In this document: positions 4,366 to 31,833 of the stretch, in pieces | Layout of the letters: the number at the start of each line of letters is the position of its first letter | How positions within the stretch are numbered: position 1 is the first letter of the stretch | Assembly: GCA_963706795.1 (NCBI GenBank) | Contig: OY970170.1 | Location: forward strand, 1,200,001-1,232,000 | Length of the DNA stretch: 32,000 nt | Source of the DNA: Candidatus Saccharimonadota bacterium | Lineage (GTDB): Bacteria > Patescibacteriota > Gracilibacteria > BD1-5 > UBA2023 | Direction: 5' to 3' | Position numbers and translations under genes: made by a program | The notes under the pieces: generated by a model | What the model saw: only the letters and a program-made list of their open reading frames with translations | Database searches by the model: none | What the model was told of the DNA's origin: nothing

Positions 4366-4542
4366 GAATGAAAAGAAAAGTCCAAAACGGCACGGATTAT
4401 ATGGAACGTGCTCTCGAGAAGCAAACTGAAAGAAATTTATGTTCTTGAATCCTGAGAGACAAGTCCATGATTTATCGAATCCAACTCCTTGACTTTTTAC
4501 GTTATTGTAGTACAAGTCAGGAAATTCATGTCATCCTCCTAA

Positions 4543-8715: not shown

Positions 8716-8778
8716 TATTTTGAAAAGTAAAATTTTCTGCTACAGTGATTGGCTTCATTAATTTTTAAATTCAATCAC

Positions 8779-9261
8779 ATGAACGTATATGATTTTGTAG
8801 TTCCGGCTAAGGGAAACAAGACGGAAGACCTTTCAAAATATAAAGGAAAAGTGACGATTATCGTCAATGTTGCGAGTAAATGCGGACTGACTCCGCAGTA
8901 TGACGGACTTCAAAAGCTCTATGATACCTACAAGGATCAGGGGCTCACGATTCTCGGGTTTCCATGTAATCAGTTTGCCAACCAAGAACCTGGAACTGAT
9001 GAAGAGATTGCCGAAGGATGCAAACTCAACTATGGTGTTACCTTCCCAATCATGGGGAAAATTGACGTCAATGGCGACAATGCAGATCCACTCTATAAAT
9101 TCCTCAAAGACAAAAAACACGGGATTTTTGGAAAAGCAATCAAATGGAATTTTGCCAAATTCCTCGTCGATCAAAATGGTGAAGTCGTCGAACGCTACGC
9201 ACCAACCACCGAGCCAGCCAGTATGGAAGCGGATATCAAGAAGCTTCTCGGAATAGCTTAG
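8779..9261 (+). CDS. gpx: glutathione peroxidase family protein (Cys-type)
   Basis: The protein begins [41 protein letters not shown] and contains [15 protein letters not shown] and [19 protein letters not shown], the three canonical GPx blocks. ATG 8779 is preferred over the TTG at 8749. Stop is TAG 9259-9261. There are no in-frame TGA codons. Confidence 0.94.
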
Positions 9262-9719: not shown

Positions 9720-9768
9720 TCACAAGTTTATGCAGTAAACTTCTCAGAAATTCTTTATCTTTTGCAAT

Positions 9769-12700: not shown

Positions 12701-13941
12701 TTAATCCACCAGGAGGACTCTTACTTGTTATTTCTCCTTCGACTGCAGTTTTTAAAACAGTTGCAACAGTAATTGTAGCACCCAACAAGCCACCAGAATT
12801 CAATGGAAGCTTCTCAGATCAGAGCTTTACAAAGAATACTTTCACGAGTCTTACGCTTACAACTGCAACTGATCCAGAAGGAAAAAATGTAACGTACTCG
12901 GCAACAGGACTTCCAGCTGGAATGACTTTTGATTCAAACAATCGAGTCATCTCAGGAACACCAACTGTTAATGGCGTATATACTATTACCTATACAGCGG
13001 TAGATCCGCTTGGAGCACCTGTGTCAGCGAATTTTAAAATTACCGTTGCAGACGCACCAATCATTATCGTGCCAAATATTCCACCAGTCTTTACAGGTGG
13101 AGTCAGCAATCACCCAAGCTTCGTGCAGAATGTTGCTATCACGCCATACGTTCTTACGGCAGCTACTGACCTTCAGGCTATTACGTACTCCGTAAGCGGT
13201 CTTCCTGCTGGTCTTAGCTTTAATCCAGCTACACGTACTGTCTCAGGAACACCAACTGGAACCGGTGCATCAACTGTTACTTATACAGCAACTGACTCAC
13301 TTGGAGCTACAGCTACTCTGTCATACACCGACACCGTAAGTGCACCTATTGATACTTCACCAGATGCATTCGATATTACGAATGTCACAAATCAGTCTAT
13401 CTCTACAGTTATTACAACTGGAGCAATTACGGTAAGTGGCATTACTGCTGCAACTCCCGTCAATGCATCAACGACTCTTGGTACGATTGTTAAGAACAAT
13501 ACTGATACTGGACTCACTTCTACAACTGTAGTATTGGGCGATACAGTAGCCGTAAAGCTTACGACCTCGGCGACATATGGCGCAACACAAAATGGAACCG
13601 TAACCATTGGTGGAGAGAGTGACGGATTTTCTGTCATAACAAAGGCGAATACCCCACCAGTCATCTCATCAGACGGAGACTTCTCAGCAACCCATAATGT
13701 ACAATCCGCAGAGCGCACACTTACTGTATCGAACGCAAATGGAGGAAATATCACGGTGACCGCTGATTCGGATGACCCAACTTGTTCTATCATTTTTACA
13801 ACCACTACGACAGTAAATGGGTCGGGGGTTGTAAAATATCGAGTATTTGGTACAGCTTCAGGACTTCCAACGATTACTTTCACAGTCACAAACGATGGAA
13901 GTCTTGGCTCACAGACAGCTGTAAACGTAACTATGAATTAA
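9769..13941 (+). CDS. giant secreted surface protein 1 (1390 aa): N-terminal beta-strand-rich region followed by Fn3-like and two He_PIG-type (putative Ig) domains
   Basis: Track ORFs 9769, 10342, 10792 and 11662 are all in one frame. The gaps contain only TGA (10219, 10282, 10630, 11599) and no TAA/TAG until TAA 13939-13941. The signal-like N-terminus is ..KKKNAAILALGIISNSYA/ENP. The Fn3-like block is TPTIAAPTVSTTETSATITNRISSP..FNGLTPDTEYFAKTSARV. Two tandem repeats follow: ..VTYSATGLPAGMTFDSNNRVISGTPTVNGVYTITYTAVDPLGA and ..ITYSVSGLPAGLSFNPATRTVSGTPTGTGASTVTYTATDSLGA, which match the He_PIG/dystroglycan-type Ig signature. Confidence 0.9.
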
Positions 13942-14020: not shown

Positions 14021-17000
14021 ATGAGTAAAATGAGACCCAAAAATGACCGATTCAGACGCTGTATTGCAAGCATCATAGCAACTACGCTCTTTTTGGGTCA
14101 TTTTTCTTCTATTCCAACAGCATTTGCAGCGGATACTTTCACGCTTTCTGCAACAGAAACAACTGGTCAAACTGTTATCAATCCTGGAGGAACACTCAAA
14201 TATAACGTTTTCCTCAAGAATAATACAAGTTCGTCAAACGGGGCAACTAGTCCATGAATTGGAGTTTCTTTTGATCACACAGAGTTCACCTACAGTGGCT
14301 CGACATGGTCTACCACTCAAGTACCAGCTGGCTCTGGTGGAGCAGGATTTAATCCACCAAGCAGCAATACTGGTACATTTGATGTGGGCACGCTTCAGGT
14401 TTGAAAAACCGCAAAACTCAGCGATTTTACCATCGTCTTAAACCAAAACTATACAGCTACGAGCATCACGCTTACCGCAAATGGTTTTGCTTCCAACTTC
14501 CCTACTATTACGCGAAGTGCTGCAACCATCGCAGTTAACTCAACACCGCATATTAAATCGGTCGTACTGAGCAAGGGGTCAATTATCAACAATGGAATCG
14601 ATTCTGTAAATGCGACTGTTCGTGTTTTGGATTATAACGGATGTTCGAATCTCTCAGGCGGCTCATCGACAATGACGCTCGATACGAGTGCGCTTTGAGG
14701 ATCTTCTGCACTTGCGCCATCGAGCTCGGGGTGTGATGTAGACGGAGTGACTGTTGTGTATACCTTTAATGGTATAGTGACTTCAAATGGACTCTCTGCA
14801 GGATCAAAAAATCTTACGGCAACCGCACGAGATGCTGAGTGACACCTTGCAAATTCTGATGCGAATTTTACGAGCGATGATGGCTCACCAACGGGCACGA
14901 TCACAGTCAATACTGCCACCGCACCAGTGGTAACAGCACTCTGAGCGACACCTTCACCTGTGAGGGCAGGTCAGACCGTCACAGTATCATGGCAATCGAG
15001 CCAAACAGGAAGTTATGCACTCTACTCAGGATCTGGAGCCGCCTGCTGAGCAGGAAGTCTCTTCGCATCTGGAAATGTCGCAGCAATAAATTCTCCGATT
15101 TTTTCAAATCTCTCTTCTGATACACTGCCAGAAGGAGTATTAAATCTCGCGCTTTGTGTGACTAATGCCGAGCCAACAACAGGTTCTACGCTTCAGGCAA
15201 TTACCAAGGACACGGTAGCACCAATGATCACTATTGGTGAATACTCTAACAACATTACATCGCAGAATGTTAGTTTAGGATTTCAATCAAATGAACTCGG
15301 GACATATCGTGTACTCGTAAATAATATCGATACCGGAGTCACCGGTACTGTTTCGGCAATTAATACGACGGTAACTGTAAGTGTGCCAAATGCTGCTTTT
15401 ACGATCAATCCCTGAAACAACGACGTCCGTGTCACAGTAACTGATGCTGCAGGAAATGTCGGGAATTCTAGTACTGTACAAGTCAATAAGGATTTTACAC
15501 CACCGGCTCCGGTAACCAATGTACAGCTCACAGACTGTGACTATATAGGTAATAACGGCACGCCTTGCGCACTTCTCGGTAATCCCCGCTCAGGAATGTC
15601 TGGACGAGATTTTTATGTGCAATGGGATACGCCAACCGGATCTGGAGGATTTGCGACCTATGACATATTTGTATTGCCAGTTGGAACCACAGTCGATACC
15701 AATATTCATACTCCTGTAAAAAGCGTCGGAGGATTTACAAGCACTGGAAGCTTCTTGCTTGATGGACAAGCAACTGATAGTTCCGGATCACTCTTGCCAC
15801 AAACAGGAACAGGTCAATATGTTGCATCGGTACTCGTACATAAATTTAATGGACTCTATTCAAGTACGGTATCTTCGAGTGGCACAATCATTACAGCAGA
15901 TGCAATCACCTATCCAACTATCTCGAGCGCTGCATTTACTTCGAATACAAGTCTGACTCTTACATATAACAAAACTCTCACTTGAGCTTTAACAGGATAT
16001 AATTCTAGTAAACTGAGTTCACCAAGCAGTTGTTTTGTTATAGATACGAGCACAGGCACGGGAGCAAAATCCATGACCGGAAGCATAGTCACTTTTGCTG
16101 TTCAGCCACTCTGAAATCTCTCAAAAACCTGTTCAGATCTTGCAGTCACTGGAACATGACTCGTAGTTGATTCTCAAAATCTCTATAGCGAAGAGACTCC
16201 ATCTGGTATTACTGTAAATGACTGACAAACTCCCCTGCCACTTACTATTACTGCTCCGACAAGTAATTCGTTTGTAGGAGGAAACGGAGCTTTTAATCTC
16301 GTCTACAATCTACCAGAAGCGATGTCAGGAAGCACGCTCAAAGCAACCCTCACCGATGGTTCTGGTGCAACTATCCAAGTACCACTTACACTTGCAACAG
16401 CAGGAAGTCATACAAAAACACTCACATGATCAGTGATCGGCCTCGTGGATGGGAAGGTCTATAGCATCGTAATCTCTGGACAAGATCTCGCTGGAAATGC
16501 GGGTATTTCGAGCGCCGTAACCGGTATTACCTACGATCTCACTCCGCCAAGTATTCCAGTACTTTCGTCACCCGTAGATGGAATTTATACGAACCTAACT
16601 GCTCCTGCACTTGCATGGATCATGGCGAATGATAACTATTCTGCTGCGGTAAATATCTCATATAAAGTCGAGGTTTCGCTCGCTTCAGACTTCTCGACCC
16701 TAGTATCGAGCGGATCAATATCGAGTGGTACGGGCTTTACAGTGAATCCTTCGCTCACAACAAGCGCTCCATACTACTGGCGTGTTCAGGCCATTGACCA
16801 AGCCGGCAATGTCAGCTCCTTTTGTGTAGCTCGAAGCTTCACCTTTGATAACATTGATCCAGTTATTAGTCCGATCGCAACAAATACCTACGTACAAAAT
16901 ATCAGTCGCTCATTTACTGGATTCGTACGAAATGGGGACAATATAGAAGTTCGCTCCGTGATTACGGACAATTTTAACACGCAGATGACCACTGCGAATG

Positions 17001-20000
17001 TTGTTGCGGATCTTTCGGCGCTTGGATGAGGATCTACAACGATTGCGAGCACATACAACAATCTCAGTGGCGCAGCAGTCTGGAGTCTCACTGCAACATG
17101 TACTGATGGTACAAAAAATATCCCACTTACTGCTACGGATAAAGCAGGTAATATAGTTAACTATACGGTCACAACTATCTGTGATAACACAGGGCCAGCG
17201 CTTCTTGCAAATTCGGTACTTACTCCAGCAAATGGTGCATATTTGAGTGGTGGGGTGTCGTATGACATCACATGGAATCCAGCTTTTTATAGTACTGAGC
17301 TTAGCCCAATAGGTAGCCCTATCGATATTGATTTTTCACAAACTGGAGCTTCGTGGTCTAATCTCGCAACAGCAATTCCTAATAGCGGAAGCTTCACATG
17401 GAGTGTACCATCCGTTAATCTCTCTGGTGCACAAATTCGTATCACGGCAACTGACAAGCTCGGCAATACTACAAGTGTTATCAAAACTTTTGTCATAGAC
17501 TCTACAAATCCTACTGTTGCCATTGATGCTATCACTACACCAAACGGAGGTGAATATCTCAAAGGAAGTACAGGAAGCGGTATTACCATCACTTGGAATA
17601 CTGGAAAAGTCTCTGACACCAATCTTGGAAGCACGCCAGTAACTCTCGCCTATTCAACCAACGGAAGCACCTGGAATACTATCGCATCAGGTCTTGGAAA
17701 TGCTGGAACGTATCTCTGGACAGGTGTTCCTGCACTCAATTCTGCGACTGTTCGTATAAAGCTTACAGCAACTGATCTCGCTGGAAATACTTCGACAGAT
17801 ATTTCGGATGCAGATTTTACAATAGACTCTACACTTCCAAACATTGCGGTCATTACTCCGCCAACACCAGCAACGAGCTCCTTTATCTCCGCTGGATGAT
17901 TTGATACACAGACCCAGGGATCCGACACTAATCTTTGGAAGATTGCATACTCACTCGATGATGGATCACTCTATTGGAACGAAAGTACTACAGGCTGGCT
18001 CGGAGTTCCTCAGTGGAATGATATCTGTACGAACGCTGCAACCTGTGCGACTGCAAATTACACCATCACTCCATCTATCAGCGATGGAACATCCTATCAT
18101 CTCAAATTCCGCGTAACGGATCTTGCGGGTAATATTCGTGATTCGAGCATATATACATATACGGCTGATACAGTAGCGCCGGTAGTTACAACTACGCTTC
18201 CAAATAATACTTACTACTCAGGATCTGTAAGTATTGCTGGTACAACTTCTGACGCGCGATCGGGAGTTTCGTCTACGAAGGTTTCGATTCTTCGAGAGTC
18301 AGATAATAACTACTGGAGCGGTACAGGCGGATTTACTGGTACCGCCACACTCAATCTTGCAACCACAACGAGCAATGGGTATGCAACATGGTCGTTTAAT
18401 GGATTCTCTCTGCCTGGCGGAGATGCAGACGGTACGTCATATCTCATCACTCGCAGTGCGACAGACAACGCCTACAAGATTAATAATTCCTCAACTGGAG
18501 CCACTCGTATCTATAAAGATGCTACCGGCCCAACGATTGATCCAAACGTCTGGACGAATCCTTCTACAGCAATCTTTTGGGAATGATCTGCCCCACAAAC
18601 GCTCACATGGAATACTGGAGCAATCAGCGATGCAGTCTCCGGAGTTAATCAAACAGGCGGAATTATCCTCGAGTACTATCCTACAACGGGAACTGGTTGG
18701 ATTACCATCGCATCAGGTATAGCCAATAGTGGCAGTTATATTTGGAATGTCCCAACGCTCGATACCGACCTCAATCTCCGTATCCGTGCTATCGACAATG
18801 CTGGCAATGCAGGAGCTGGAGTCACCAGTGCAACTGTTACAGTCGACAGCGTACCGCCTACGGTCTCAAGTGTATCAACTATGGATCAGTGAGCCACTGG
18901 ACAGATCGATGGACTCTTCGTAACAATGAGCGAACCAATTATTTGTTCAACTGTTCGTGCGAGCGATTTTACGATTGGCGGAATCGGCAATCCAACGAGC
19001 ATTGGTGCATGTAGCGGGAACTCAAATACATTCATTTTGAATTTTGCTCCGTTTGGGAATACTGCCTCAAAACCAACATTTACATATCTCTGAGCTGGTA
19101 CGCTTACTGACCGCGCAGCAAATCACCTCGCATCAGTTGGACCAATTACCCCAACTGATAACGCGGTACCACGTATTCTCTCTGCGAGCATTACCGATAC
19201 CAATCTCAATGGGAAGGTCGACAAAATTGCCGCTACCATGAGTGAACCAATCGCTGCTTCGAGCAATACTTCTGCATGGGCGATTGTATCCCCTGTCGCA
19301 GGAGTTGGCGCTACTCCAACTGCAGTTTCTGTATCGAGCAATATTGTAAATCTCACTATCTCAGAGCCTACAAGTTTTGATACTTCTACTGGAGGAATGT
19401 CACTTGCATTTACAACGAACTCCAATTGGAAGGACGCTGTAAATAATCCAGTTTCTTCAAATGCATCGATTAGCCTCACTGATGCAGCTCTGCCACAAGT
19501 CGTAAGTGCAAAAACAGTGGATATTGGTGGGTACTACGGTGCACAGATTGTATTCTCTGAGCCACTTTTGAGTACGACACTCGCGGGATTTGGTCTTGGT
19601 GGCACGAGCACATTTACAGGAACGATCATTAATTTGGATTCTCTCACCTATAACCTCGTAACTGCAGATGCCACTGCACTCAATACAGGCAAGACGTTCA
19701 CTCTAACATATTCAAATACTGGTCTTGTATCAGATCCAAGTGGCAATCAACTCGCAAATATCGCTTCCAAAACCGTGATCGACAACCTCGCTCCGCGCAT
19801 CATTTCACGAACAACTGCTGACACTAATCACAATGGGAAGATCGATGCCATCGTTGCCACCTATTCCGAGGTTCTCGGTGGAAGTCTCGCTGGCTATACT
19901 CCAACCGTCACAGGATATACTGTCAGTGGTTCAGTACTCTCTGGATCAACAGTAACAACACAGCTCGTCGAATGAAGCGTTCTTGATACTGACGCAACTC

Positions 20001-21613
20001 CGCTCATCCAGATCAATAACGCGAGTCTCGCCGATCAAGCAAGTAATTTCTTCCCGAGTGAATGAAGCGCAACAGCAGCTACAGATGCAGTCGGACCAAT
20101 TATTAGCGAAGCTCGTTACGATGGTACAAATACCATCTATGTCACCTTCTCAGAAGCATATTCTGGAAGCCTCTCAGCCTGATCATTTACGCTCTCAGGA
20201 TCGAGTATCACAATTACTGGAGTCGCTACACCAACAAGTACAACTGCAACTCTTACGGTAAGTGGTACAGTAAACTACGGTACGACCGAAATCTCTGCAG
20301 CCATCAATGCCATTGGAGACGCACTTAACAACAAGCAACAAGCAACTGCCTTTGTTAAGGTTAATGCTTCAGTCGTCATCAATGAAATTATGTGGTCATG
20401 AACTGGAAGCAGTGCCACTCAATATATCGAACTCCGAAATCTTGGAACTGCCTCAGTAGATATCTCCAACTGGACGATCGACAATGCAGCTTCTAACGGA
20501 ACTGCGCCACTCACGATTCCAGCAAGCAGCAGCATTGCAGCAAATGGATACTTCTTGATTGCTGCAACGAACACAAACAACGCGTCCAATCTCGTAGCAA
20601 ACAGCATTACTCCAAATGCGGTCCTAGCGCTCTCCCTCACGCCAAATCAAACAGGCAATCTCGTCCTCAAAAATAATCTTGGTACAACCTATGACCGAGC
20701 CAAGGCTAATCCTTGGGCAGCTGGAAATGATACACTTGCATACTCTATGGAGCGTAAAACAAGTGTCTGAGATGGGCTTACAGCGAGCAATTGGTATGCA
20801 GGACAGACAAACTCAGGATACTTTGATATCGCGGGCCCACGAGGTACGCCATGAAGCCCTAATGTCTTTGATGTTACACCACCAACTATTAATACGACGA
20901 GTATTGCAGACCAGCAAATTCTGCCTGCGGGGAATTACACGCAGAGTTATAGCTACACCGACGATATCAGCATAAGCGCAACTCCGGTCGTAAGCTATCT
21001 CCTCGAAAAAAACAATGGATCTGGAGCGTACACGGATGTCACAGTTGCATGAGTAAGTGCATCGTGAGCGAATGGGGCAAGCAGCACATTCACACTTCGT
21101 AATCTTGCACCTGGGGCATATCGCTCGACATTCTCAGTTCAGGATGCTGCGGGGAATAGCACTCAGGAAATCACGATATTTTATATCGACAATGCGAGCC
21201 TCAGTGTCACAAGCACTCCGATTAAAATCGGCGCAGTGAGCGCCAACACGCTCACCACCGCTGTAACCAAAGCGGTAATCACGCTCAAGACTATCGGAAC
21301 ACCGTTTAATCTCACTCTCGGCGGAAGTGGCACGCTCAGTGCGGGTATTAATAATATTCCAATTTGGGATGGAACATCAGGATATGGATATGCCTGTGCA
21401 CCAACAAATAACGCGCAACCAGATTTCTGTGATGCCACTATTCGATCTGTAACTGGCTGAGTGATCGGATCATCCCTCACAGCCAATCCAGATGTTAATG
21501 GAAACCTCAAAACCTATACATACACCATCGAGTATTCGACCAAAGTCGATGCTACAAAGCCCGCAGGAACCTATGGGGCACAATGAAAATATGACGTGCA
21601 GTTCAACTATTAA
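14021..21613 (+). CDS. giant secreted surface protein 2 (2530 aa): multi-Ig adhesin-like array, a lamin-tail domain and a C-terminal WxL-like module
   Basis: ATG 14021 gives the signal peptide ..CIASIIATTLFLGHFSSIPTAFA/ADTF. Track ORFs 14021, 15158, 15596, 16433, 17243, 19238, 20555 and 21236 are congruent mod 3. I translated every gap by hand and found 27 in-frame TGA codons and no TAA/TAG before TAA 21611-21613. At least 9 Ig-type domain ends carry D-x-[AL]-G-N (TDKAGN, TDKLGN, TDLAGN x2, IDQAGN, IDNAGN, TDAAGN, QDAAGN, QDLAGN). The lamin-tail domain lies at about 20372-20863. Confidence 0.9.
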
Positions 21614-21708: not shown

Positions 21709-21735
21709 TTGACTTTCCTCAAAGTTTGAGATAAT
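21709..21735 (+). promoter_or_regulatory. weak candidate promoter for the 281-aa subunit gene
   Basis: TTGACT (21709-21714), a 15-nt spacer, then GATAAT (21730-21735), about 65 nt upstream of ATG 21801. The spacer is short and the -10 element is imperfect. Confidence 0.3.
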
Positions 21736-21800: not shown

Positions 21801-22646
21801 ATGAAAGCCAATCTCAAGAAGTCGATTGCCCTCGCAAGTGCGCTTGCAGTAGTGGCAGTTAGCACACTCTCTGTGTATGCAACCAATACTGCTATTAATG
21901 GTGCTACAGCGTCTTACTCTACAACTACAGTAACAGTTACTAACACTGCTGCTTTCACGAATGGTTCTAACGAGATTACGTTCGCTACAATCAAGAATCT
22001 TGATGGAACTGCAACAACAGGTGGACTCACGCTCACACCTTCTGGAGCAGGAACAAATGACACTTCAGTTCTTACGATCTCTGCGGATCCTTCTACTACT
22101 GATGACAACAAGGTTCTCGTAATCTCATTCGTTACTGCAACAGGTGACTTCGGTACTGCTCAGCTCACGGTTGGTACTCCAGCAAACAATACAGTAAGTG
22201 TTACTGCAAATGTTGTTCCTACACTCTCACTCACTCTTAGTGGAACGACAGTAGCTCTCGGAGCACTCGACTCAAGCACAGTGGTTACGGCAGCAACTCA
22301 CCCAACTGCGACAGTAAGAACAAATGCAATTGGAGGATTCAACCTTCTCGTTGCCAGTTCAAACAACGGACTTCACTCAACTTCTGCAAACTATACAATC
22401 TCAGGAGCAACTGCAAACTCTTCTGAAGGTTATGCACTCGCTGGTACAGAATGAGCAGATCCACAGGGAAATGGAACAACTGCTGCTTCAGTAGTTCTAT
22501 CTAACACTCCTACTCAGCTTGCATCAGGAGGACGTACAGCTGGTTACACTTCTACAATCGATGTAAAGGCTTCCATCTCAGCTCTCACTCCAGCTGCTGG
22601 AGACTACGCTGATACTCTTACATTCACTGTAACTGGTACGTTCTAG
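21801..22646 (+). CDS. secreted 281-aa protein with a C-terminal WxL-like (FxL) module; candidate abundant surface subunit
   Basis: Signal peptide MKANLKKSIALASALAVVAVSTLSVYA/TNT. Track ORF 21801..22454 continues through TGA 22452-22454 to TAG 22644-22646. The C-terminal half (VPTLSLTLSGTTVALGAL..TVRTNAIGGFNLLVAS..AGDYADTLTFTVTGTF) is paralogous to the last roughly 140 aa of the 2530-aa protein. A strong terminator follows. The CDS call is solid, but the WxL-like assignment rests on motifs and architecture only. Confidence 0.85.
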
Positions 22647-22662
22647 TCTGTCATTCGACATT

Positions 22663-22691
22663 AAAAAAGTCTCCAAAATGGAGACTTTTTT
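22663..22691 (+). terminator. rho-independent terminator between the subunit gene and the downstream operon
   Basis: AAAAAAGTCTCC-aaaat-GGAGACTTTTTT: a 12-bp stem, a 5-nt loop and a T-run, 17 nt after the stop codon. Confidence 0.85.
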
Positions 22692-22831
22692 AATCCTTGG
22701 AAATTCTAGTTGTACAGTACTCTCCCCTCTCATAAAAGTTCTCATTGCGCGAAAAAGACTTTTTCGTATGATTCATACTAATTTGAGACAAGAACGCATT
22801 CTTGTTGAGAGACTATTTCTATTTTTCTTCC

Positions 22832-24025
22832 ATGAAATTCCTTTACCGAGCAATACTGTCGATTGGACTTCTCGTATCGATGGCAGACTTGGCACACGCA
22901 GATCTGTCTATTTCTCCGCTCAAGCACGAATTCACTATCGAAGCTGGAACCGAAAAATCAGAAATCATCAAAGTAACGAACGGTACCGACAAGGCAATCA
23001 CGCTCTATACATCTAAAGAAGATTTCATTGCCGGAGGTGACACAGGTACGCCTTCGTTTGTGAAACCACAGGACCGCACAAGCGACACATATGGACTCTC
23101 TGACTGGATTACAGTCGAGGACAAAAATCTCACCCTTGCAAAGGGCGAAACTCGCGAAGTACGCTTTAAGGTCAAGGTTCCAAAAACTGGTGAACCAGGT
23201 GGACACTACGGAGCGATCTTCTTTTCTCCTTCAGCACCAAGTGGATCACAGGTAGCGGTAGTACAGCGACTCTGAGTCCTCGTGCTCGTCAACGTCCCAG
23301 GAAATGTAAAAGTAGAAGGAAAGCTCGACGGATTTGAGATCGGTATGGCCGAAGCTCAAAAGCCATTTGTACCCGCAAACGAATTTAGTGCATTCCCAAT
23401 CACATTTGAGACAAAATTCAAAAATGATGGAAATGTCCACCTCAAGCCAACTGGTAAGATCGAACTTATCGACGAAGACGGCAAGACTCTCAAAAATATC
23501 GGTAAAGAAACCCTCTCAACGCCGCAAGGTCTCTATCTTGGAGAGCAGATGGTTGACTACCTCCCAATCAACAACGGACTCGGAAGCGTTCTTCCAAAGA
23601 GCGAACGTCGATTTGATTACGCATGGGAAGGATTTGGATATTCTGTACTCAATGCTGATGGCACCAAAAGCGTAAAATTTAAGAGTCTCACCGAATACTA
23701 CGCAGATCAGGCAGCCGAAAAACGCCGATTCCTCGCCTTTTATGAGTCAGTCCACAGTAGATTAGTAACCAAAAAGATTACTGCCAATCTCTCGCTCTCC
23801 TACGACGCACCTAACAAAGACCACAAGGACTTCCGAGACTCAAAGACATTTACGGTGACGTATGACGAAGACTATGTCGGAGTGAATTACTACGTTGTTG
23901 GAGGCGTCATTGCTCTCATTCTTCTCGCAGTTTGGTATGTACTCGTATTCCTACCAAAATCACGCGAAAGACTCCGCAAGCAGCTCCTTGAGGAACTCTC
24001 TGCATCTTCTCAAGAACAAGAATAA
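22832..24025 (+). CDS. membrane-anchored two-domain beta-sandwich protein (397 aa) with WxL-interacting-protein (DUF916/DUF3324)-like architecture
   Basis: ATG 22832 gives MKFLYRAILSIGLLVSMADLAHA/DLSISP. ORFs 22802..23275 and 23282..24025 share a frame and are joined across TGA 23273-23275. The N-terminal domain reads LSISPLKHEFTIEAGTEKSEIIKVTNGTDKAITLY...LTLAKGETREVRFKVKVPKTGEPGGHYGAIFF...VLVLVNVPG. A second beta-rich domain follows. The C-terminus is a TM helix plus a charged tail (VVGGVIALILLAVWYVLVFLPKSRERLRKQ). The function is inferred from layout, not from an alignment. Confidence 0.85.
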
Positions 24026-24048
24026 GAAACGAGCCCTAATTCCTTCTT

Positions 24049-24495
24049 ATGTTTCTAAAACGAATCCGCTCGTACGCACTCACGGTTACAACGGTACTCG
24101 TTTTTGCTGTGGCTTCCTTTAGTGACTCGGTGATGGTATTTTCGGACGAGCTCGTGACGATTTTTGCAAACGTAGGAATTACGAATCAACCACCGCTCGT
24201 CACCAGTATTACGCCAAGCGCTTCACCCATGCTCGTGGCTAAAAATACCTATCAGACTTTTAGCGTACAACTCACTGATGCGGATTCGAGCAATATTCTC
24301 TATACAATCAGTACAGCGAGCGGAGTGCTCTTGCCTACATCTGGAACTGCGCCTATTACTGGTGGGAATGCGGAGATCAATTTTACGTATTTTGCGCCTT
24401 CGTATAAAGCAAAACTCGTCCCAATCTATCTCACGCTCAACGACCAATCTGGAAGCACACCAATAGTGCGCCAGATCGATGTTTATGTCTATTAA
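24049..24495 (+). CDS. small secreted Ig-like protein (148 aa)
   Basis: The N-terminus MFLKRIRSYALTVTTVLVFAVASFS is a signal peptide or signal anchor. A single beta-sandwich-like domain follows (NQPPLVTSITPS..FSVQLTDADSSNILYTIS..IYLTLNDQSGSTPIVRQIDVYVY). Stop is TAA. The start lies 23 nt after the upstream stop. There are no in-frame TGA codons. Confidence 0.75.
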   Translation: MFLKRIRSYALTVTTVLVFAVASFSDSVMVFSDELVTIFANVGITNQPPLVTSITPSASPMLVAKNTYQTFSVQLTDADSSNILYTISTASGVLLPTSGTAPITGGNAEINFTYFAPSYKAKLVPIYLTLNDQSGSTPIVRQIDVYVY

Positions 24496-24502
24496 ACCGG
24501 AC

Positions 24503-25555
24503 ATGCAAAACTCCAAAATAAAAGATCCGATATTTGTCTGGACTACATGAGTTATCCTGGTGATTATTGCGATTGCTTCCATACTCTTCCATCTCAAGCC
24601 AAACGAACTCGCCATTCCCGAAGAAACGATCTCAAATGGATCGATTGATTCTTATACTCAAAATCTTTCTGCAAGCGGATCCCACTACGAAAAATCCCCA
24701 GCCTTTGGCAAGGGCGATGAACTCGAAGTGGTCTACGTAATCACTCCAGAAAGTTCGCTGAATTTTTTGGCAGACTTCCGCAAACTCAAAGATTGGCTCA
24801 ATATCGAGACCATCGATATGAATGGCGAGAAAACGAGCCCCAACGTTCTCGATACACCTGTGAGTGGTAGCGGAACAACCGTTCTCAAGATCCGTGGACA
24901 TTCAAAGCAGCCGTCTAATACTGATAGCGCTCTCACAGATGAATCAGTCAGCATCGAGTTTACCTGAAAAAAACCTCAGACCGCCCGCTCATCCAAGATT
25001 ATCACCTCAGAAACAAAATCGAGCAAGGATCTTGTACTCGATCAAACGCAGTTTTCGGTTGGAGAGAATAGCATTCTACGAGTAAATGGCGCTCAAGATC
25101 TCATCGCAAAGATCAGATACCTCAATATCGGCGGCAAGAGCCTACCAGCGATCATCTGACAGGGTAGCGCCTATGCCGTAATCGAGCGTGGAAGCTTTGA
25201 AAAGGGCGACTATTTTGTGGGTGCATTTTTGGATGATGGAACCCTCATCGGTCTCGACGGACAAGCGAGCTTTACTGGCGAGCTCAAGGCAGTGAGTATT
25301 GTTGCAATCGTTCCAAACCGAGTATCATCAGAACACGAAACATTCGTCGTACTTCAGGGCCATGGATTCCAAAAAATGGTCTCAATCCAGCTCAGCAATA
25401 GCTTTATATTCAAAAATCCGTCATTCAGTATTACCAGCGACGAAGTAGCCATTGTAAAGATACCAAAGGGGCTTTCAGCCGGAACCTACATCTTTAATAT
25501 GATGGATACAAAAGGAATCTATACAACCGATACTACTGGATTAACCGTCTACTAA
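24503..25555 (+). CDS. N-terminally membrane-anchored protein with a C-terminal IPT/TIG-like domain (350 aa)
   Basis: ATG 24503 lies 7 nt after the upstream stop and gives MQNSKIKDPIFVWTT-G-VILVIIAIASILFHL (TM helix). ORFs 24560..24967 and 25217..25555 share a frame. In-frame TGA codons are at 24548, 24965 and 25157, with no TAA/TAG between them. The C-terminal VSIVAIVPNRVSSEHETFVVLQGHGFQKMVSIQLSN..IVKIPKGLSAGTYIFNMMDTKG has an IPT/TIG-like pattern. Confidence 0.78.
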
Positions 25556-27883
25556 ATGTCATCTTCCCTCTTCGCTCGATATTGTGCATACGCCGCCCTG
25601 TTTGCCAGCTGTATTTTTGCAGTAGTAGCTCCGGCGTCGGCGGACTATATTGTTAAAAATCTCGAGGTACGAGGCGGAACTTCGTGAGCATTTAGCAATA
25701 CGCTGAGTACAGCATCAACAGGAACTCAGATTGGATTTCGCATTGGTATTATTACGGGGCCTTCTGAGCCACTTCGAGCACATAGAGCGACCCTCGCATT
25801 ACCTATTGGACTCACAGCAAGCGGATATACCGTAGAGAGTCTTGATTGCACAACAGGTATTACCAACGTATCTCAGGCATACAATAATTTTTCGTTTGAT
25901 TATCCAGGAGGCTCAGATTGTGAAATCATTCTCGTGGCAAACTACCGCACAGCAGGACTGAGCGGAAGCCTCTATCAGCCATCAGTAACGCTATCAGATT
26001 CGGTTGACGGGACATTTTTAAATGGGAATGATCTCCTGAGCTCGAGCAATCAGGTGACGCTTAATATAACTTCACTTGTCACCATTCAATCAGCAATTAC
26101 TCGCGATACGAATGGAGATGGGTATATTGACCGCTTTGATCTCACCCTCAACAATCCTGCACCTGCAAGCGCACCGACCTGACCCATCTCGGTGGTTGTT
26201 GATGCAAAAACAGCAACGGGTGTAGTGTTTAGCGCAACACCGTGAGCATTTACCGGAACACTCTCATTTTCGGATGGATACATTCGTGGCAATGAAACAC
26301 CGCGCATCAGCATCGTGGGTGATGCATTTTATGCCTCAGGTGATTACTTTTCAGAAGTCGTAGAAGACGGTGCTGCACCAAAAATTACTGCAACGCCAGC
26401 AGGAGGAACATTCACTGGTAGTAAATCAGTAAGTCTTGCCTCGAGCGAAAGCGGTTCACTCTTCTATACATTTACTGGAAGCGCGAATAGTGGCTCGACA
26501 CTTTATAGCCTACCATTCAGCATCAATTCAAATACTACACTGAGTGTGTTCACACAAGATATTTGGACAAATAGTCGTACAACAAACTTTGTATTTACAT
26601 TCCAGTGTCCGCTTGCCGCACCAGTAAACGGAACAATCAGCGGATACCCAAGCTGTGTAGTTACATGTGACTCTGGCTACCAGCTGAACGGCGGACTCTG
26701 TACAGCAATCCCCCCACCTGCAAGCGGTGGTGGTGGTGGAGGTGGGGGCGGAGGCGGAGGATGAAGCATCGTCGTAGGAACACCGAAGGATACATGTCCA
26801 CAGGGTGATACTTCTGGTAATACCAATGATGGTCGCTGTACACCGCTCATATCAGGCAGTGGCAGTACTTCATCCGGAACCACGAGTGGCAGTGGAACAA
26901 CCGATCCTGTTATCAATCTTCCAGGAAATACCGGAACTCTGAGTCCAATCTCAGGACTTGGCTATGCAACGCTCGATCTCCCCTATTTTACATCGCTTCA
27001 GGCGGCTCGTGATTATCTAAATTCGCAGATTGCAGACACTCGTATCCGAAACTTAATCCGCACGCACTATAATCGTCTCGCCTTTGCAGATGCAAGTTAC
27101 TATCTCTCATTTGATGCGGACTTTGCAAAGACCTACAATCGATCAATTAATGCCTACGTGCTCTATATCCTAAGAAGCGAAGATGTACGAGTTGGTAAAA
27201 ATATTCTCGCATCAAGACAAGAAGTCTCAAAGTCTCTTCTGATCTTAAATACGACCTACACGACTATTAGTACCATTGATACGCGCTATGTTCGTCTTGC
27301 GAAGGTCATTGGCAAATATCCTTCGACTGTATATCGCACAAAGGTAGCTTCGCTTCGTAATAGTCTCACACGTGCTGAACTTCGATATATAGGTAAATTT
27401 AAGCGACTCGTTGTATCTGGAACTATTACTCCTGACGCATTCCAGAAAGCGGTTCAGAGCTATAATCGCTATGTTCTTGTGAAGTCTGTTGCAGTTTTAT
27501 ATGCATCTGCTGCACCTTCAGATGCTCTTGGTAATACGGCATACGACGAAATCGAGGCAATCTATGCACTCAAAATAAAACTCACGTCTCCGGTGAGTGT
27601 TACACCTATTCCGACTCCAGTTATTCCTGTAGCACTTCCAAAAGTGGGTGATTACTACAGCCTCACAAAAAATCTCCAATTCGGAATATCCGACCCTGAA
27701 GTCATGAAACTCCAAACCATTTTAAGGCACTACGGTTATATCAGCAATGAGCCAACAAACTATTTCGGCGATATTACCCGAAAAGCACTCATCAAATTTG
27801 CAGATGAGAAGCTTGGGATTAAAAATTCAAACGGCGTCTTTGATGCTACGGTGCGAAACGCGCTCCTAAATCTCAACTGGTAA
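25556..27883 (+). CDS. secreted 775-aa protein with a CHB_HEX_C/Fn3-associated-like domain, a poly-Gly linker and a C-terminal peptidoglycan-binding (PG_binding_1-like) domain
   Basis: The ATG directly abuts the upstream TAA (25553-25555/25556). Signal peptide: MSSSLFARYCAYAALFASCIFAVVAPASA/DY. ORFs 25934, 26315 and 27158 share a frame. In-frame TGA codons are at about 25685, 26180, about 26243 and 26762. The gaps were checked and are free of TAA/TAG. Stop is TAA 27881-27883. The C-terminus reads LQFGISDPEVMKLQTILRHYGYISNEPTNYFGDITRKALIKFADEKLGIKNSNGVFDATVRNALL, which matches the PG_binding_1 pattern (G..V..LQ..L...GY....G.FG..T..A...F....GL...G). Confidence 0.88.
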
Positions 27884-28771
27884 TTAGGCAGTAGTTCGGT
27901 ATTTATTACGAGGCCTGCCAGTTCAAGAAGCGACCTTGAGATATTTAGAAATTTCACAGAGACAATTTTCGACAGCCATAAGATTGAGTCTCGGGATTTT
28001 TCGATCAGAGAATATCTCATCGGGATTTTTGCCAACTGAATGAAATCCTTCTTCTTGATGCGCGACGAGCCAGGTGATAGCATCCTCGTAGCTGAGATCT
28101 CAAAGATCTGTAAATATTCGATCGAGTCATCTTTTGCAGCCTGGACCTGCAATGACATGTACGGATTCGTCATAGAGATCAGGTCGTGCATAGCCAAGGT
28201 CTACAGAGATTTGGTACGCAAGGAATTCTCAAAGACCAGGGAGCTCACGAATAAACTCATAGGTAGCTTTTGAATCCTTCGCCAGTTCGATTTGTGTCAC
28301 TGTCTTTGGAATGAGGACGGCTATATCCTCGAGCAGCTTCATAATGCGCGATATTTTGTCACCAAAACTCGCATATTGTTGATATCCAGAGACGAGATAG
28401 GCATTCGTGAAGACCTTTTCGCCAGTCGCTTTATATGCATGAAGTCGTTTGTCTGCAGCGAGACGATCAAAGCTCTGGATGGTTTGTAATCCAAGTGCAT
28501 CCATCGTTGCTCATTTATTAAAGAGACGATAGATAATGAGGTTGAAGAGGAGATTACTCGTATCTCCCTTAAGCACTGGAATAATACGATCCGTAATATA
28601 TATCGTTCCTGGATCGAGATCGCGAAAAACATTCGTAAATTTATATTCCCGCAAAATCTGATCATCCGTCCATGGAAGCGGAAGTTTTTTGAGATGCTTC
28701 TTATGAAAAATCGCATGCCTTTCTGTGATATAATACCAGAAGGTCTGAAGATTTTGTGAATGGATGTGCAT
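27884..28771 (-). CDS. aGPT-pyrophosphorylase / 5-hmdU DNA kinase helical-domain-like protein (putative DNA base hypermodification family), 295 aa
   Basis: ATG 28771. ORFs 28511..28771 and 28229..28504 share a frame, and hand translation continues to TAA 27884-27886. Five in-frame TGA codons lie at 28511, 28229, 28127, 28100 and 27923. Motifs: FWYYITERHAIFHKKHLKKLPLPWTDDQILREYKFTNVFRDLDPGT, LFNLIIYRLFN, LPGL-G-EFLAYQISVDLGY and VIAGPGCKR-G-LDRIF. These match my memory of that family (PWT.D.IL..YKF.NV.R.LD..T; G.F.AYQ...DL; GPG..RGL). The CDS call is solid, but the family call needs a profile search. Confidence 0.8.
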
Positions 28772-28811
28772 GCATGCAGTATGACTGACTTCATGTAAAG
28801 TAAAATCAAAA

Positions 28812-28850
28812 GAAGAAAAAATCCTCCTACGCTCTTACGAGCTTCGGAGG
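28812..28850 (-). terminator. rho-independent terminator after the EEP nuclease gene (motif family copy 2)
   Basis: Minus strand: CCTCC-gaag-CTC-GTAA-GAG-cgta-GGAGG, then ATTTTTTCTTCTTTT. The nuclease gene's TAA stop lies inside the loop region. Confidence 0.75.
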
Positions 28851-29806
28851 ATGGATATTAAAACAGTGTGTCAGCAAATTATTCACAGCGGTCTGAGGCA
28901 TGCGTAGACCGGCAAATGATCACTGAGTTTTCTGGAAGCTTTGAGACTTATATTAGTTATAGGCGCAAAGTACATCGCTGGGAAATCGATAACCCCAGAT
29001 TTAGTAACTTCAAAACCCTTCGTGGTGTAAATATTATCGTAGTGATTATTTTTGTGCTCGCCCTGTGGACCAACCTTTGCCTTGAGAGAAGTCAAAGTAT
29101 TGATATTTGGAGTGAGTCCTAATGGCACCAGATGAGGATCTGTTTCAGATGAGCCCAAATTGAAGTCACCCGAAAAGATTGCATATTTTGGTAGTCTCGC
29201 AAATTCGTGAGACCGTGCAATCTCTATGACTTCATTTACTGGTATTTTTTCAGTCGGTATAGTATGGATCTGGTACATCACCACTTTCTTTGAATCCACC
29301 ATGAAAGTTGCTTTGTACGGCTCCCTGTCGACCTCGTTTTCGAGCTCAGATACCAGCCCAGTGCCATCTGGAATGAGGCCAACACGACCACTTTTCCACC
29401 AATACGCGTAGAGTTCACCGCCACTACTGTATGGCTTTGGTCGGTCACTGATACTATAATTGTATTCAGTTCCCGAACTGGTGAGCTCATCTTTCATGGC
29501 TTTTACAGCGCGTTCGCCGACATACCCCAGACTAACTTCTTGTCCGGCAATGATGTCTGGATCCATGGTCATAACGATTTTGGCCATGGTGGCGATTTCT
29601 TCTGGTGATTTGGATTTCCCAAAATTTGCCAGATTCCAGGAGACGACACTGATGGTATCAGCAGGACAGCCATGCGTGACTTTTTTGCGAAGGACAAAGT
29701 TGTCAGATGACCAGGTTGAGAGTGGCTTTTTTACCGGCTCAATAGAGCTACAGCCAGCAATAAAGGCAAACAGAACGAGCAATCCATATTGCCAAATCTT
29801 CTTCAT
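28835..29806 (-). CDS. lipoprotein endonuclease/exonuclease/phosphatase (EEP, DNase I-like) family nuclease
   Basis: MKKIWQYGLLVLFAFIAGC/SS has a lipobox. EEP catalytic blocks are present: VVSWNLANFG, DIIAGQEV, SGDFN and LSDHLPVYACL. The track ORF ends at TGA 28883-28885. Under table 25 it continues for 16 codons (GIICGHTVLISILRSS, including a second TGA) to TAA 28835-28837. Confidence 0.88.
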
Positions 29807-29898
29807 GATATCTTCCTTTCTTTTGGTATTTGTGATCCAAATTGGACTGTCTATTTATACAAAGAATACTGCAACTGTCAAAAGCCATAATCTTCGCA

Positions 29899-29941: not shown

Positions 29942-31651
29942 TTATTGTACGTTTACTGTGACCCAACCATCTGTATATCCGCTACTTCCACTACAACGGA
30001 TTCGGAATGTTGTAGTTGTATAGACATTACCTGTGTAGGTGCTTCCTGATACTGGGAGAGCAACGGTATTGCCACTCGCATCAGTTCGTTCACATGATGT
30101 GGCATTAGTAGCATTCCAAAGAAGTGTTGTTTGACCTCCAGACTGTACAGTGCTTGGTGAAGCTGCAATAACCACTGTCGGAAGCACTCCTGTTGTTCCT
30201 CCGTTGCCAATTACGGTTCCAGATGAGTTATTTACACCAACTGTAACATATGCCTGGCTATAACCACCTGGACCAGTACATCGGATATAAAAACTTGTAG
30301 TAGTCGAAAGTGGACCAACAAACGCATTTCCTGAAACTGGTACAGATTCGAATGCACCACTTACATTTGATCGCTCACATGTTGTTGCGTTTACTGCATT
30401 CCAGATGAGGACTGCGCTGCTTCCCATTGAGACTGTACTCGATGCTGCAGTCATAGTAACTGTAGGCAGGAGAAGCGTTGTTACTGGCAATACATTTACT
30501 GTAATGGACTCTTTAGAGCTTCCGTATGAACCGCTACAATTAAAGTAGAATGTCGTGCTCGCCGTGAGTGGCCCAGTACTTACACTTCCAGAAGTATTGA
30601 TATTACCGAAGTAGTTACCCGTCGTACTTGTCTGCTCACATGTATTGGCATTAGAAGCACTCCATGTGAGAGTGACGCTTTCTCCTGAATTAACCGTTGT
30701 TTTAGATGCTGCGAGATTGATACTCGGAGTCCATGTCTGTGGAGAAATTGGAGGTACTGCATTAACCGTTACAGCTCCAAAAGCCACTCCACCTGGACCA
30801 CTACATCTAATACGGAAAGTTGTATTTTTCCAAATAGGTTCTGAGAATGCCGCACCATATACTGGTGTATTTGCAAATGCTCCAGCAGCATTTGTACGTG
30901 TACAGTATGTTGCATTGGTTGATGTCCATGTGAGAGTCGCGCTCTTACCAGAAGCAACACTCGAAGCGTCAGAACTGATACTTACTGTTGGTCGACCATA
31001 ATTTGAAGTAGATGGTGGATTGATAATCGGTGTATCAATAATGGGTGCATCCCCTACTCGCACAAGCACTGAAGCTTCAGCGATCTTGTTTTGACCAGTA
31101 CATCGGATGGTGAAAGTCGTCTCTCTTTGGAGAATCCGTACGAGTGAGCTTCCTGAAGTTTGGATAGATTCTGAGCCACCGTTACTGTCGATTCTCTTAC
31201 AAGAGAGCGCATTGGTTGAACGCCATGAGAGTGTAGCAGTATCTCCAACATAGGCTGGAAGAGTATCTGCCGAAAATGAAACCGTTGGATCAAGATTTGA
31301 TACTACCACGATGCGGATCGAAGCAGTACGAGTACCTCCTGGTCCTACACACTTGAGATTATAGCGAGTCGAGCGTGTAAGGGGTCCGACTACGAAGCTT
31401 CCAACATCGTCACCAAATATGTAATTACCAACATTGCCCGACCAGCGACATGAGTAAGCATTGCTCGCATCCCAGCTAATTGTTGTGCTTCCGCCAACGG
31501 TTACAAACATAGGATCACCCTTGATGCTGATCTCTGGAGCAGGAACAGAAGTATCTACCCCTTCTACGAAGGCTGAAGCTGATGAAGTGACTGATAGAGC
31601 AAAAATAGCTACCAATCAAACCCATCGCGCAACCGAAAGTTTTGAAAACAT
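29942..31651 (-). CDS. secreted protein made of six tandem two-cysteine Ig-like repeats (569 aa)
   Basis: ATG 31651 gives MFSKLSVARWV-G-LVAIFALSVTSSASA/FVEG (signal peptide, with the only in-frame TGA at 31616-31618). Six repeats of about 85-90 aa follow, each with [ST]-[LI]-x-W-x-[AS]-x-N-A-x-x-C ... F-x-[IF]-x-C-x-G-x-G-G. Stop is TAA 29942-29944. Confidence 0.88.
29945..31537 (-). repeat. six diverged tandem coding repeats (about 255-270 nt each)
   Basis: The protein-level repeat cores are TISWDASNAYSC..YNLKCVGPGG, TLSWRSTNALSC..FTIRCTGQN, TLTWTSTNATYC..FRIRCSGPGG, TLTWSASNANTC..FYFNCSGSYG, VLIWNAVNATTC..FYIRCTGPGG and TLLWNATNATSC..FRIRCSGSSG. Confidence 0.85.
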
Positions 31652-31833
31652 ATGCGACTAGTTAAATATATAACTTTGATTATCCACAAAAGTCTCAAAA
31701 AGTAAACTGACATATATTTTTCGTGAGATGCAAATCAAAATTTACGTTTTGGAATTTTGAAAATGATCAAAAAACAATAGGATGCACATATCTCTATCCG
31801 ATGCTTTTTCCCACAAAAAGTCACCTCCTTCAC

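Follow-up and report, generated by a model that had tools for sequence, protein, structure and literature searches.

What do five consecutive genes, lying downstream of the genes for two giant secreted proteins, build on the surface of a bacterium whose lineage has no outer membrane? The question is raised by a stretch of 32,000 nucleotides (hereafter the window) of contig OY970170.1, from a Candidatus Saccharimonadota bacterium placed among the Gracilibacteria. Positions 21,801 to 27,883 of the window carry the genes that we call g1 to g5, and upstream of them are those of the giant proteins A and B. An original prediction, made from the sequence without database searches, saw there a surface complex resembling the clusters of WxL proteins and WxL-interacting proteins (WxLIP), arranged with the logic of a pilus locus. 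This last element of the prediction was borne out. Our results suggest, with a probability of about 0.65, that the locus encodes a divergent, Gracilibacteria-type form of the Pam pilus found in the candidate phyla radiation (CPR), i.e., a filament assembled by donor-strand exchange in a cell lacking an outer membrane.

The Pam pilus was described in Candidatus Mycosynbacter amalyticus, a parasite of the Saccharimonadia whose filaments were solved by cryo-electron microscopy (Troman et al., bioRxiv 10.64898/2026.03.03.709456). In that system the inter-domain linker of each pilin is donated to the neighbouring subunit, and the pam operon encodes FimC/PapD-like chaperones, PamC and PamD, with a C-terminal transmembrane (TM) helix (bioRxiv 10.64898/2026.03.03.709456). 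PamT is an acceptor-only tip pilin, and PamR, which carries a TM helix besides one more strand at its N-terminus, is the terminator or anchor; the pilins rank second and ninth among the most abundant proteins (same preprint).

A small gene with pilin relatives

The evidence that carries this reading starts with g1. A hidden Markov model (HMM) built from 71 CPR sequences of lineages that do not use genetic code 25 (UGA read as glycine) matches residues 130-281 of g1 with E = 2.2e-20. The family so defined is found across the CPR, with at least 6,677 cluster representatives at E <= 1e-3, and no Pfam domain was found in any member scanned or listed. In NCBIfam release 20 (June 2026), 35 of the 43 members sampled match NF058581 (CPR_Pam_pilin_C, 'Pam pilus system pilin subunit', curated cutoff of 55 bits), the best with 7.6e-49, and seven of them match the PamT model. 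Because of this transitive HMM link and of the NF058581 matches, the family of the g1 C-terminal domain (CTD) is that of the Saccharimonadia pilus subunits solved by cryo-electron microscopy. Three code-25 orthologs of g1 also match NF058581 directly, one with 42.7 bits (E = 5.8e-11, model positions 2-148) and two more weakly, with 21.2 and 17.6 bits (E = 2.5e-4 and 3e-3). At the level of sequence profiles, the g1 CTD and the CTDs of bona fide Pam pilins are homologs; g1 belongs, on this basis, to the Pam pilin family, and the system is a divergent one of the Pam type.

The structure agrees with this assignment in its layout. We used the AlphaFold2 (AF2) model of a 67%-identical homolog (P0122), not one of g1 itself. 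It has beta strands at residues 30-125, an isolated strand at 143-148, and an all-beta CTD with predicted local distance difference test (pLDDT) values above 90, which is the succession of N-terminal domain (NTD), linker and CTD of Pam pilins. The only high-probability matches of this model in the PDB, as found by Foldseek, were CfaB and TasA (both 0.99), which are subunits joined by donor strands. The linker contains a candidate donor strand (Table 1) with the motif [VI]x[VI][STYF]Ax[VI], kept at the same position in the other family members, code-25 and other CPR alike, with the pilin consensus V.VTAtV.P. The motif has a background rate of 0.11 per 1,000 residues and occurs, among the seven proteins of the region, only in g1 and g3.

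A membrane-anchored protein of the DUF916/WxLIP family

Next to the candidate pilin, g2 is, as judged from its sequence, a genuine PF06030 protein of the DUF916/WxLIP family. Its match to PF06030 (DUF916/WxLIP_PGBD, residues 35-132) scores 37.9 bits against a gathering cutoff of 27.3, and its family aligns in hhalign with Firmicutes WxLIP (96.9%, E = 1.9e-10) and with Actinobacterial DUF916 proteins (97.6%). Homologs from Gracilibacteria are already labelled 'DUF916 domain-containing protein' at NCBI. The second WxLIP domain, PF11797 (HBD/DUF3324), was undetected by sequence in g2 and in 10 other CPR g2-like proteins. The AF2 model used here was again that of a homolog (81% identical, pLDDT 86.9) and not of g2 itself. 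In it, two beta-sandwiches are accompanied by a short helix, a beta-hairpin of 45 residues and, at the C-terminus, a TM helix. The protein g2 is exported by the Sec route and its sequence ends in a basic tail; the two sandwiches, the TM helix and the tail are those originally proposed for it. The best Foldseek matches were crystal structures of E. faecium WxLIP from 2026, first 9i25_C ('bound to long WxL'; TMt 0.64, E = 1.8e-10) and then 9i1y, with alignments spanning 332 columns. Then came the two-domain chaperones CfaA, Caf1M, CsuC and FimC-type proteins (E from 6e-10 to 1e-7). Sequence and model together point to DUF916/WxLIP as the family of the Pam-type chaperones, with g2 as a candidate PamC/PamD-like chaperone.

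Two highly conserved loops in the first domain of the g2 model, around residues 61-90 (E63, F65, P74, F76, L89) and 131-150 (Q140, R146), have low pLDDT and recall the hairpin loop of WxLIP, reported to become ordered once WxL binds. Elsewhere, a g2-like PF06030 paralog of Parcubacteria (L040, 12338-13984) has a C-terminal LytR_C domain (53.7 bits), suggesting that some chaperone-like paralogs are coupled to the attachment of cell-envelope polymers. On a plasmid of Cohnella herbarum (L081, 1338-8834), a DUF916 protein ends a Tad/Flp-type pilus gene set in which a TadA ATPase is accompanied by several small hypothetical proteins; no WxL gene is annotated in its vicinity.

The proximity of g2 to WxLIP is also an argument for a reading without any filament. 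According to it, g2 would be a scaffold in the membrane or the wall that binds the common C-terminal module of g1 and B by strand complementation and thereby tethers both as monomers, and g5 would add wall attachment. The score of g2 above the PF06030 threshold and its best structural matches, one of them a WxLIP in complex with a WxL protein, speak for such a display complex.

Is the small protein a WxL protein?

In its formal shape, the locus looks like a WxL cluster. Most of the canonical Firmicutes WxL loci that we compared (L083-L089) run from a large WxL adhesin through an LPXTG protein and one or more small WxL proteins to a WxLIP, which fits the published definition of these clusters (PMC9772566, PMC10599100). 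The succession of large protein, small protein and WxLIP is the same here as in L083, L085, L086 and L087. The commonest layout in CPR phyla that do not use code 25, two small proteins and one g2-like protein, often with a large protein, is also compatible with a display complex.

Yet the WxL-like module that had been predicted for g1 could not be recognised as a WxL domain. PF13731 matched none of 44 proteins (g1 and 43 relatives), and the solved WxL domain (9i25_A) was absent both from the top 50 Foldseek matches of g1 and from the profile matches at E <= 10. Several hhalign variants comparing the g1 CTD with WxL gave probabilities of 3-7% (P = 0.006-0.014). Block shuffles never reached the score of this comparison, and unrelated beta-rich pairs gave similar P-values. 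The direct value of about 0.006 lies within that background, and homology between g1 and WxL is therefore unproven. We rejected the membership of g1 in the WxL family on these grounds.

Fainter traces of similarity exist. The reciprocal enrichment of HMM ranks between g1 and WxL was significant, which shared composition could cause. Besides an FG strand, two motifs of the g1 family are collinear, at similar spacing, with those of WxL: TNAxxG[Y/F]x[V/L] aligns with D.RGT.AGWxL, and AGxYxxTLT[Y/F] with YxxTLTWxL. In the g1 family these motif positions are occupied by Y or F in 57 of 77 cases and by W in two. Small WxL-like proteins encoded on Actinobacterial plasmids provide a weak bridge, since they align with Firmicutes WxL at 92% and with the g1 CTD at 46% (P = 2e-4, reached by none of 80 shuffles). 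Their second motif is T-H-S-V; not every member of the superfamily, then, bears the Trp-x-Leu signature. Both the collinear motifs and the bridge count in favour of a display complex. These similarities have to be read with caution in Thr/Ser/Ala/Gly-rich beta proteins, where compositional bias inflates weak scores, and we therefore treat as established only the relations of g2 to WxLIP, of g1 to the CPR pilin family, and of the B C-terminus to the g1 CTD.

The Actinobacterial pairs (L082, L090-L093, L095, from plasmids of Arthrobacter, Streptomyces and Curtobacterium) consist of a WxL-like protein of ~175 residues followed by a DUF916-like protein of ~340, mostly annotated as 'hypothetical'. 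The DUF916 proteins of these pairs match the CPR g2 family with E = 3e-12 and Firmicutes WxLIP with E = 1.6e-5, and so stand nearer to the former.

Two further observations disfavour a display complex. Relatives of g1 were experimentally shown to be filament subunits, and the motif found in the g1 linker and at the g3 N-terminus would have no role in simple docking. All things considered, we regard a non-polymerising display complex as unlikely, and a divergent Pam pilus as the better account.

A giant protein ending in a pilin-type domain

In such a pilus, B may be the adhesin at the tip. Pfam finds in B an LTD domain at residues 2115-2226 as well as Big_13/Ig-like matches. Its C-terminus had been predicted to repeat the C-terminal module of g1, and hhalign confirmed it: the B-family C-terminus aligns with the g1 CTD family at 91.7% (E = 7.7e-7) and three variants of the comparison gave 86-91%, a score reached by none of 80 block shuffles. 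The association is not peculiar to this locus, since in other CPR phyla the eight large proteins (633-2,257 residues) with a significant match all carry the g1-type module at their extreme C-terminus. The strict linker motif is found in none of 18 B-family C-termini. Having a g1-type CTD without the linker motif, B would be acceptor-only.

L001, the closest relative, keeps the other giant protein, A, beside B, and so does L020. The g1-type module is not present at the C-terminus of A.

Candidate accessory and wall-binding genes

The motif of the pilin linker reappears in g3. Of 32 g3 orthologs 31 have it, and 29 of these place it 22-36 residues behind the start, right after the signal peptide, with a consensus (V.VSAiVG) close to that of the pilins (V.VTAtV.P). 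In the loci compared, g2 is always followed by g3. These traits make g3, on its sequence, a candidate donor-strand-only terminator or adaptor subunit. Its fold was first described as Ig-like, which is hinted at by a sub-threshold Big_9 match in a single ortholog.

The product of g4 has a hydrophobic N-terminus that reads as a TM anchor and a C-terminal IPT/TIG-like domain, and is a candidate base component close to the membrane. The predicted TIG assignment finds some echo among its orthologs, six of 11 matching PF01833 weakly (best E = 9e-4), with no Pfam match for g4 itself.

The largest of the five proteins, g5, is a candidate cell-wall anchor. As anticipated, it ends in a peptidoglycan-binding domain: Pfam finds PG_binding_1 at residues 713-770 with 29.6 bits against a cutoff of 23. 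The rest of the protein includes a beta-rich N-terminal portion, a CHB_HEX_C_1 domain (residues 281-340, 34.9 bits), a Cys motif, a linker of 13 glycines and a helical region. Comparison with PDB sequences returned nothing but artefacts of the poly-Gly linker. Four of five g5 orthologs have PG_binding_1, and that of L022 (12627-14855) has SLH domains in its place (72.6 bits), indicating that the C-terminus of g5 is an interchangeable wall-binding module.

An invariant core and a separable partner

To place the locus among its relatives, we scanned one genome per species and obtained 80 loci, 36 of them from code-25 lineages (Gracilibacteria, 'Peribacteria' and Absconditabacteria). The synteny on which the original prediction had staked its case is conserved: the order g2-g3-g4-g5 is found in all 22 code-25 loci whose downstream flank reaches 4.5 kb or more, and the gaps have medians of 21, 5 and 7 nucleotides. 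We do not regard the arrangement as accidental. In 20 of 31 code-25 loci the gene immediately upstream of g2 is of the g1 type, and two have such a gene elsewhere in the locus. B orthologs adjoin the operon in 20 code-25 loci, and nearly all of the 21 orthologous g1-g2 spacers examined have a terminator made of an A-tract, a hairpin and a T-tract. About a third of the related lineages have unrelated genes upstream of the g2-g5 operon. Hence, g2-g5 is the invariant core of the locus, whereas B and g1, often but not always upstream, are a separable partner. Outside code 25, iterative HMMs found g1-like and g2-like genes adjacent in 43 of 44 loci.

This separability might be taken as a sign that the genes are merely neighbours: g1 could form an S-layer or coat and g2-g5 could be an operon for other parts of the envelope, none of these proteins specifically binding another or B. 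The terminator between g1 and g2, which sets separate transcription units, and the lack of detectable homology of g3, g4 and g5 to known pilus or WxL components go in the same direction. We find this quite improbable. The adjacency of g1-like and g2-like genes extends to distant CPR phyla, B and g1 have a module in common, and the fold of g2 is that of proteins that bind subunits, be they chaperones or WxLIP. An S-layer role for g1 was judged unlikely in its own right, the mature protein being small (~26 kDa) for that purpose.

Coding and transcription signals

The window has a GC content of 44%, and UGA is a sense codon in it: fragments called with genetic code table 11 fuse into long open reading frames under table 25 or 4. 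Residues facing UGA codons in ortholog alignments are glycine in 19% of cases and tryptophan in 0.4%, and glycine is the top residue opposite UGA in the conserved g2 family. The source record was apparently gene-called with table 11, leaving the genes of the locus fragmented in public protein sets, which hold only UGA-truncated forms of g1 (P0121, 217 residues) and g2 (P0019, 247 residues). Re-read under code 25, the five genes have the sizes and spacings first described, with gaps of 23, 7 and 0 nucleotides between g2 and g3, g3 and g4, and g4 and g5 (Table 1). From such spacing the original prediction had proposed the co-translation of a stoichiometric complex, which we keep as a putative feature.

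Table 1. Features of the locus and of its surroundings in the window
Feature	Nucleotides	Strand	Residues	Description
g1	21801-22646	+	281 aa	Secreted, two-domain candidate major pilin; one in-frame UGA at codon 218
g1 linker strand	22194-22214	+	132-138	VSVTANV; candidate donor strand between NTD and CTD
g2	22832-24025	+	397 aa	Two beta-sandwich domains and C-terminal TM helix; candidate chaperone
g2 parts				PGBD 35-132; second sandwich ~163-284; long beta-hairpin ~305-351; TM helix ~353-374; basic tail
g3	24049-24495	+	148 aa	Secreted, single-domain
g3 linker-type motif	24154-24174	+	36-42	VTIFANV; mature N-terminus
g4	24503-25555	+	350 aa	Two further in-frame ATGs (24479, 24485) as alternatives
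g5	25556-27883	+	775 aa	Secreted
g5 PG_binding_1	27692-27865	+	713-770	C-terminal
Promoter-like element	21709-21735	+		5' of g1; TTGACT, 15-nt spacer, TGaGATAAT (extended -10); read from sequence
Terminator-like hairpin	22660-22694	+		Between g1 and g2; A-tract, 16-bp stem including A-U pairs, T-tract
Giant protein B	14021-21613	+	~2,530 aa	Secreted, Ig-like repeats and lamin-tail domain; candidate tip adhesin
B C-terminal module	21100-21610	+	~170 aa	Homologous to g1 CTD, without donor-strand motif
Giant protein A	9739-13941	+	~1,400 aa	Secreted, upstream of B
Methylthiotransferase	2980-4653	-		MiaB/RimO-type radical-SAM, housekeeping
Glutathione peroxidase	8731-9261	+		Housekeeping
HMUDK_hel protein	27884-28834	-	295 aa	PF18723 (5-hmdU DNA kinase helical domain), 225 bits
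Candidate secreted nuclease	28835-29854	-		Lipoprotein-like; Exo_endo_phos just under Pfam cutoff
Ig-like repeat protein	29942-31657	-	569 aa	Secreted; ~six Cys-containing Ig-like repeats; no Pfam match

Between g1 and g2, the strong terminator originally noticed is real: the hairpin has a free energy of -20.8 kcal/mol (z = -6.0 against shuffles) and its counterparts are kept among orthologous loci. Our consensus scan for promoters and terminators had overlooked it, with the T-tract absorbed into the stem. Nor did the scan report the candidate promoter-like element read upstream of g1, which has a spacer of only 15 nucleotides, the cause of the omission. The effective number of codons of g1 (38.4) is the lowest in the window. 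Along with a promoter-like element and a terminator of its own, this fits a major subunit made in abundance.

How the pilus would be assembled

From the domain assignments, homologies and synteny described above, we infer polymerisation, an order of assembly and roles for g3 to g5. In the membrane, g2 would cap by strand complementation the open CTD of newly exported subunits. B, as acceptor-only component, would nucleate the filament and become its giant tip adhesin. Subunits of g1 would then join from the base, the linker strand of each entering the CTD of the preceding subunit, until g3, which would only donate a strand, stops growth. The base would be held by the membrane-anchored g4 and by the wall-bound g5. 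The distribution of the motif, in the g1 linker and at the g3 N-terminus and not in B, follows this scheme. With a promoter and a terminator of its own and a strongly biased codon usage, g1 would be able to supply the major subunit in large excess over the g2-g5 machinery.

Several observations weigh against this model. The 55-bit cutoff of NF058581 is reached by no code-25 g1 ortholog and two orthologs have no match at all, while g1 itself has no match to this model at E <= 1 and none to any Pfam or NCBIfam model. The NTD of g1, with ~100 residues and pLDDT of 60-80, is short compared with the nine-strand NTD of PamA and PamB, and g1 reaches only low TM-scores against CfaB and TasA (0.3-0.44). 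The equation of g2 with PamC/PamD is drawn from architecture, fold and operon position only. For the tip, one of five hhalign variants comparing B with the g1 CTD, which used a rough large alignment, gave only 10.6%, and the B C-termini were detected neither by NF058581 or NF058579 nor by plain HMM search. At the base, g3 has no TM helix, unlike PamR; hhalign finds g3, g4 and g5 unrelated to any other component, Firmicutes LPXTG proteins included, and the three have no described Pam counterparts. Finally, Pam pilins are said to occur mainly in Saccharimonadia and Microgenomatia, with Gracilibacteria unmentioned (bioRxiv 10.64898/2026.03.03.709456).

Neighbouring genes

The HMUDK_hel gene is convergent with g5, which it abuts directly, and its domain is typical of thymidine-hypermodification pathways. 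A homolog of the MiaB/RimO-type gene at the other end of the window also adjoins a g2 ortholog in L036. The remaining neighbours are given in Table 1.

Novelty and implications

CPR bacteria, or Patescibacteria, are believed to lead a life attached to host cells. If the divergent Pam pilus is correct, the locus suggests how they might display their largest surface proteins: a Pam-type filament with a giant adhesin at its tip, a chaperone tethered to the membrane, and fixation to the wall by peptidoglycan- or SLH-type binding domains. Giant surface proteins have repeatedly been proposed as attachment devices of these bacteria, for example in Vampirococcus (PMC8080830), with no mechanism given for their display. 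The Pam pilus would also be extended to the UGA-recoded Gracilibacteria and Absconditabacteria.

The novelty claimed in the original prediction holds in part. The existence of CPR Pam pili, made known by a preprint of 2026, and the DUF916 label on Gracilibacteria proteins are already public. The code-25 lineages and the link to WxLIP are not in that preprint, whose text is also silent on DUF916, WxL, adhesins and peptidoglycan (bioRxiv 10.64898/2026.03.03.709456). In the searchable literature we found no account of a six-gene form of the Pam system across code-25 lineages, of a giant protein ending in a pilin-type domain, of a conserved g3-g4-g5 set with a wall-binding terminus, or of the identity of the Pam-type chaperone family with DUF916/WxLIP.

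With this identity, Firmicutes WxL clusters and CPR Pam pili could be homologous systems, and the CPR pilus would be tied to a system of adhesion and virulence in enterococci, listeriae and lactobacilli that has long been known and whose mechanism is unclear. One can go further and speculate that Pam pili and the WxL/WxLIP clusters of Firmicutes and Actinobacteria descend from one ancient monoderm system of chaperones and strand-complemented subunits, in which WxLIP would be the Pam-type chaperone and WxL a diverged pilin CTD, and which code-25 CPR bacteria would use to place 2,500-residue tip adhesins on a wall-anchored filament for the capture of hosts or prey. We hold this broader view only tentatively and think it has rather less than an even chance. 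Were it true, WxL proteins would be donor-strand acceptors, possibly forming short polymers, and the giant surface proteins of episymbiotic CPR bacteria would gain a defined display machine.

Comparison with known systems

The fibres of TasA in Bacillus subtilis (PDB 8aur) show that monoderms can make fibres of donor-strand-complemented subunits, and the g1 model matches TasA with a probability of 0.99. The low TM-score (TMq 0.31) sets them apart, as do the lack of a dedicated two-domain chaperone for TasA and its different operon (TapA/SipW).

Chaperone-usher pili (Pap/Fim, CFA/I, Caf1, Csu) offer more parallels. The two-domain chaperone fold is also that of the g2 model, the incomplete Ig-type pilin has its equivalent in g1 (0.99 for the model against CfaB), the tip adhesins PapG and FimH, with their C-terminal pilin domain, are comparable to B, and the donor-only terminator PapH is comparable to g3. 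The differences are of membrane and topology: no usher, no outer membrane, a membrane-tethered chaperone, and a donor strand that is here an internal linker rather than an N-terminal extension. There is no detectable sequence similarity, and no locus protein matches the usher family in Pfam or NCBIfam.

The WxL clusters of Firmicutes (also known as Csc) have a WxLIP (DUF916, DUF3324 and TM helix), of which g2 is a homolog in sequence and structure, with a C-terminal TM helix as well. In both, a large multi-domain adhesin and a small protein with the same C-terminal module stand beside one WxLIP, in the same order, and in both the partners are proposed to bind by beta-strand complementation. 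Unlike these clusters, the locus has no PF13731 domain, its Trp-x-Leu motif is replaced by [F/Y]-x-[V/L], PF11797 escapes sequence searches, no LPXTG protein or sortase is encoded, and g2 has the additional hairpin of 45 residues before its TM helix. WxL proteins are also described as peptidoglycan-bound monomers, whereas the family of g1 has pilins that polymerise experimentally.

The closest system remains the Pam pilus (PamA/PamB, PamC/PamD, PamT, PamE, PamR; NF058581, NF058579). The locus departs from it in its UGA = Gly host, in a pilin of 281 residues that stays under the curated cutoffs (Pam pilins have ~370-520), and in having one pilin and one chaperone instead of several of each. Its candidate acceptor-only protein is a giant of 2,538 residues with Ig repeats and an LTD domain instead of a single-domain PamT, and its candidate terminator does without the TM helix of PamR. 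It also has two extra conserved genes, g4 (N-terminal anchor, TIG-like) and g5 (PG_binding_1 or SLH), and the ATP synthase/CorB flanks reported for pam operons are not present. The locus resembles it in a pilin of the same CTD family, built of NTD, linker and CTD; beside it, in a chaperone-like protein of two sandwiches with a chaperone-usher-like fold, which ends in a TM helix; in having neither usher nor outer membrane; and in a candidate acceptor-only component together with a non-pilin that bears a putative donor strand.

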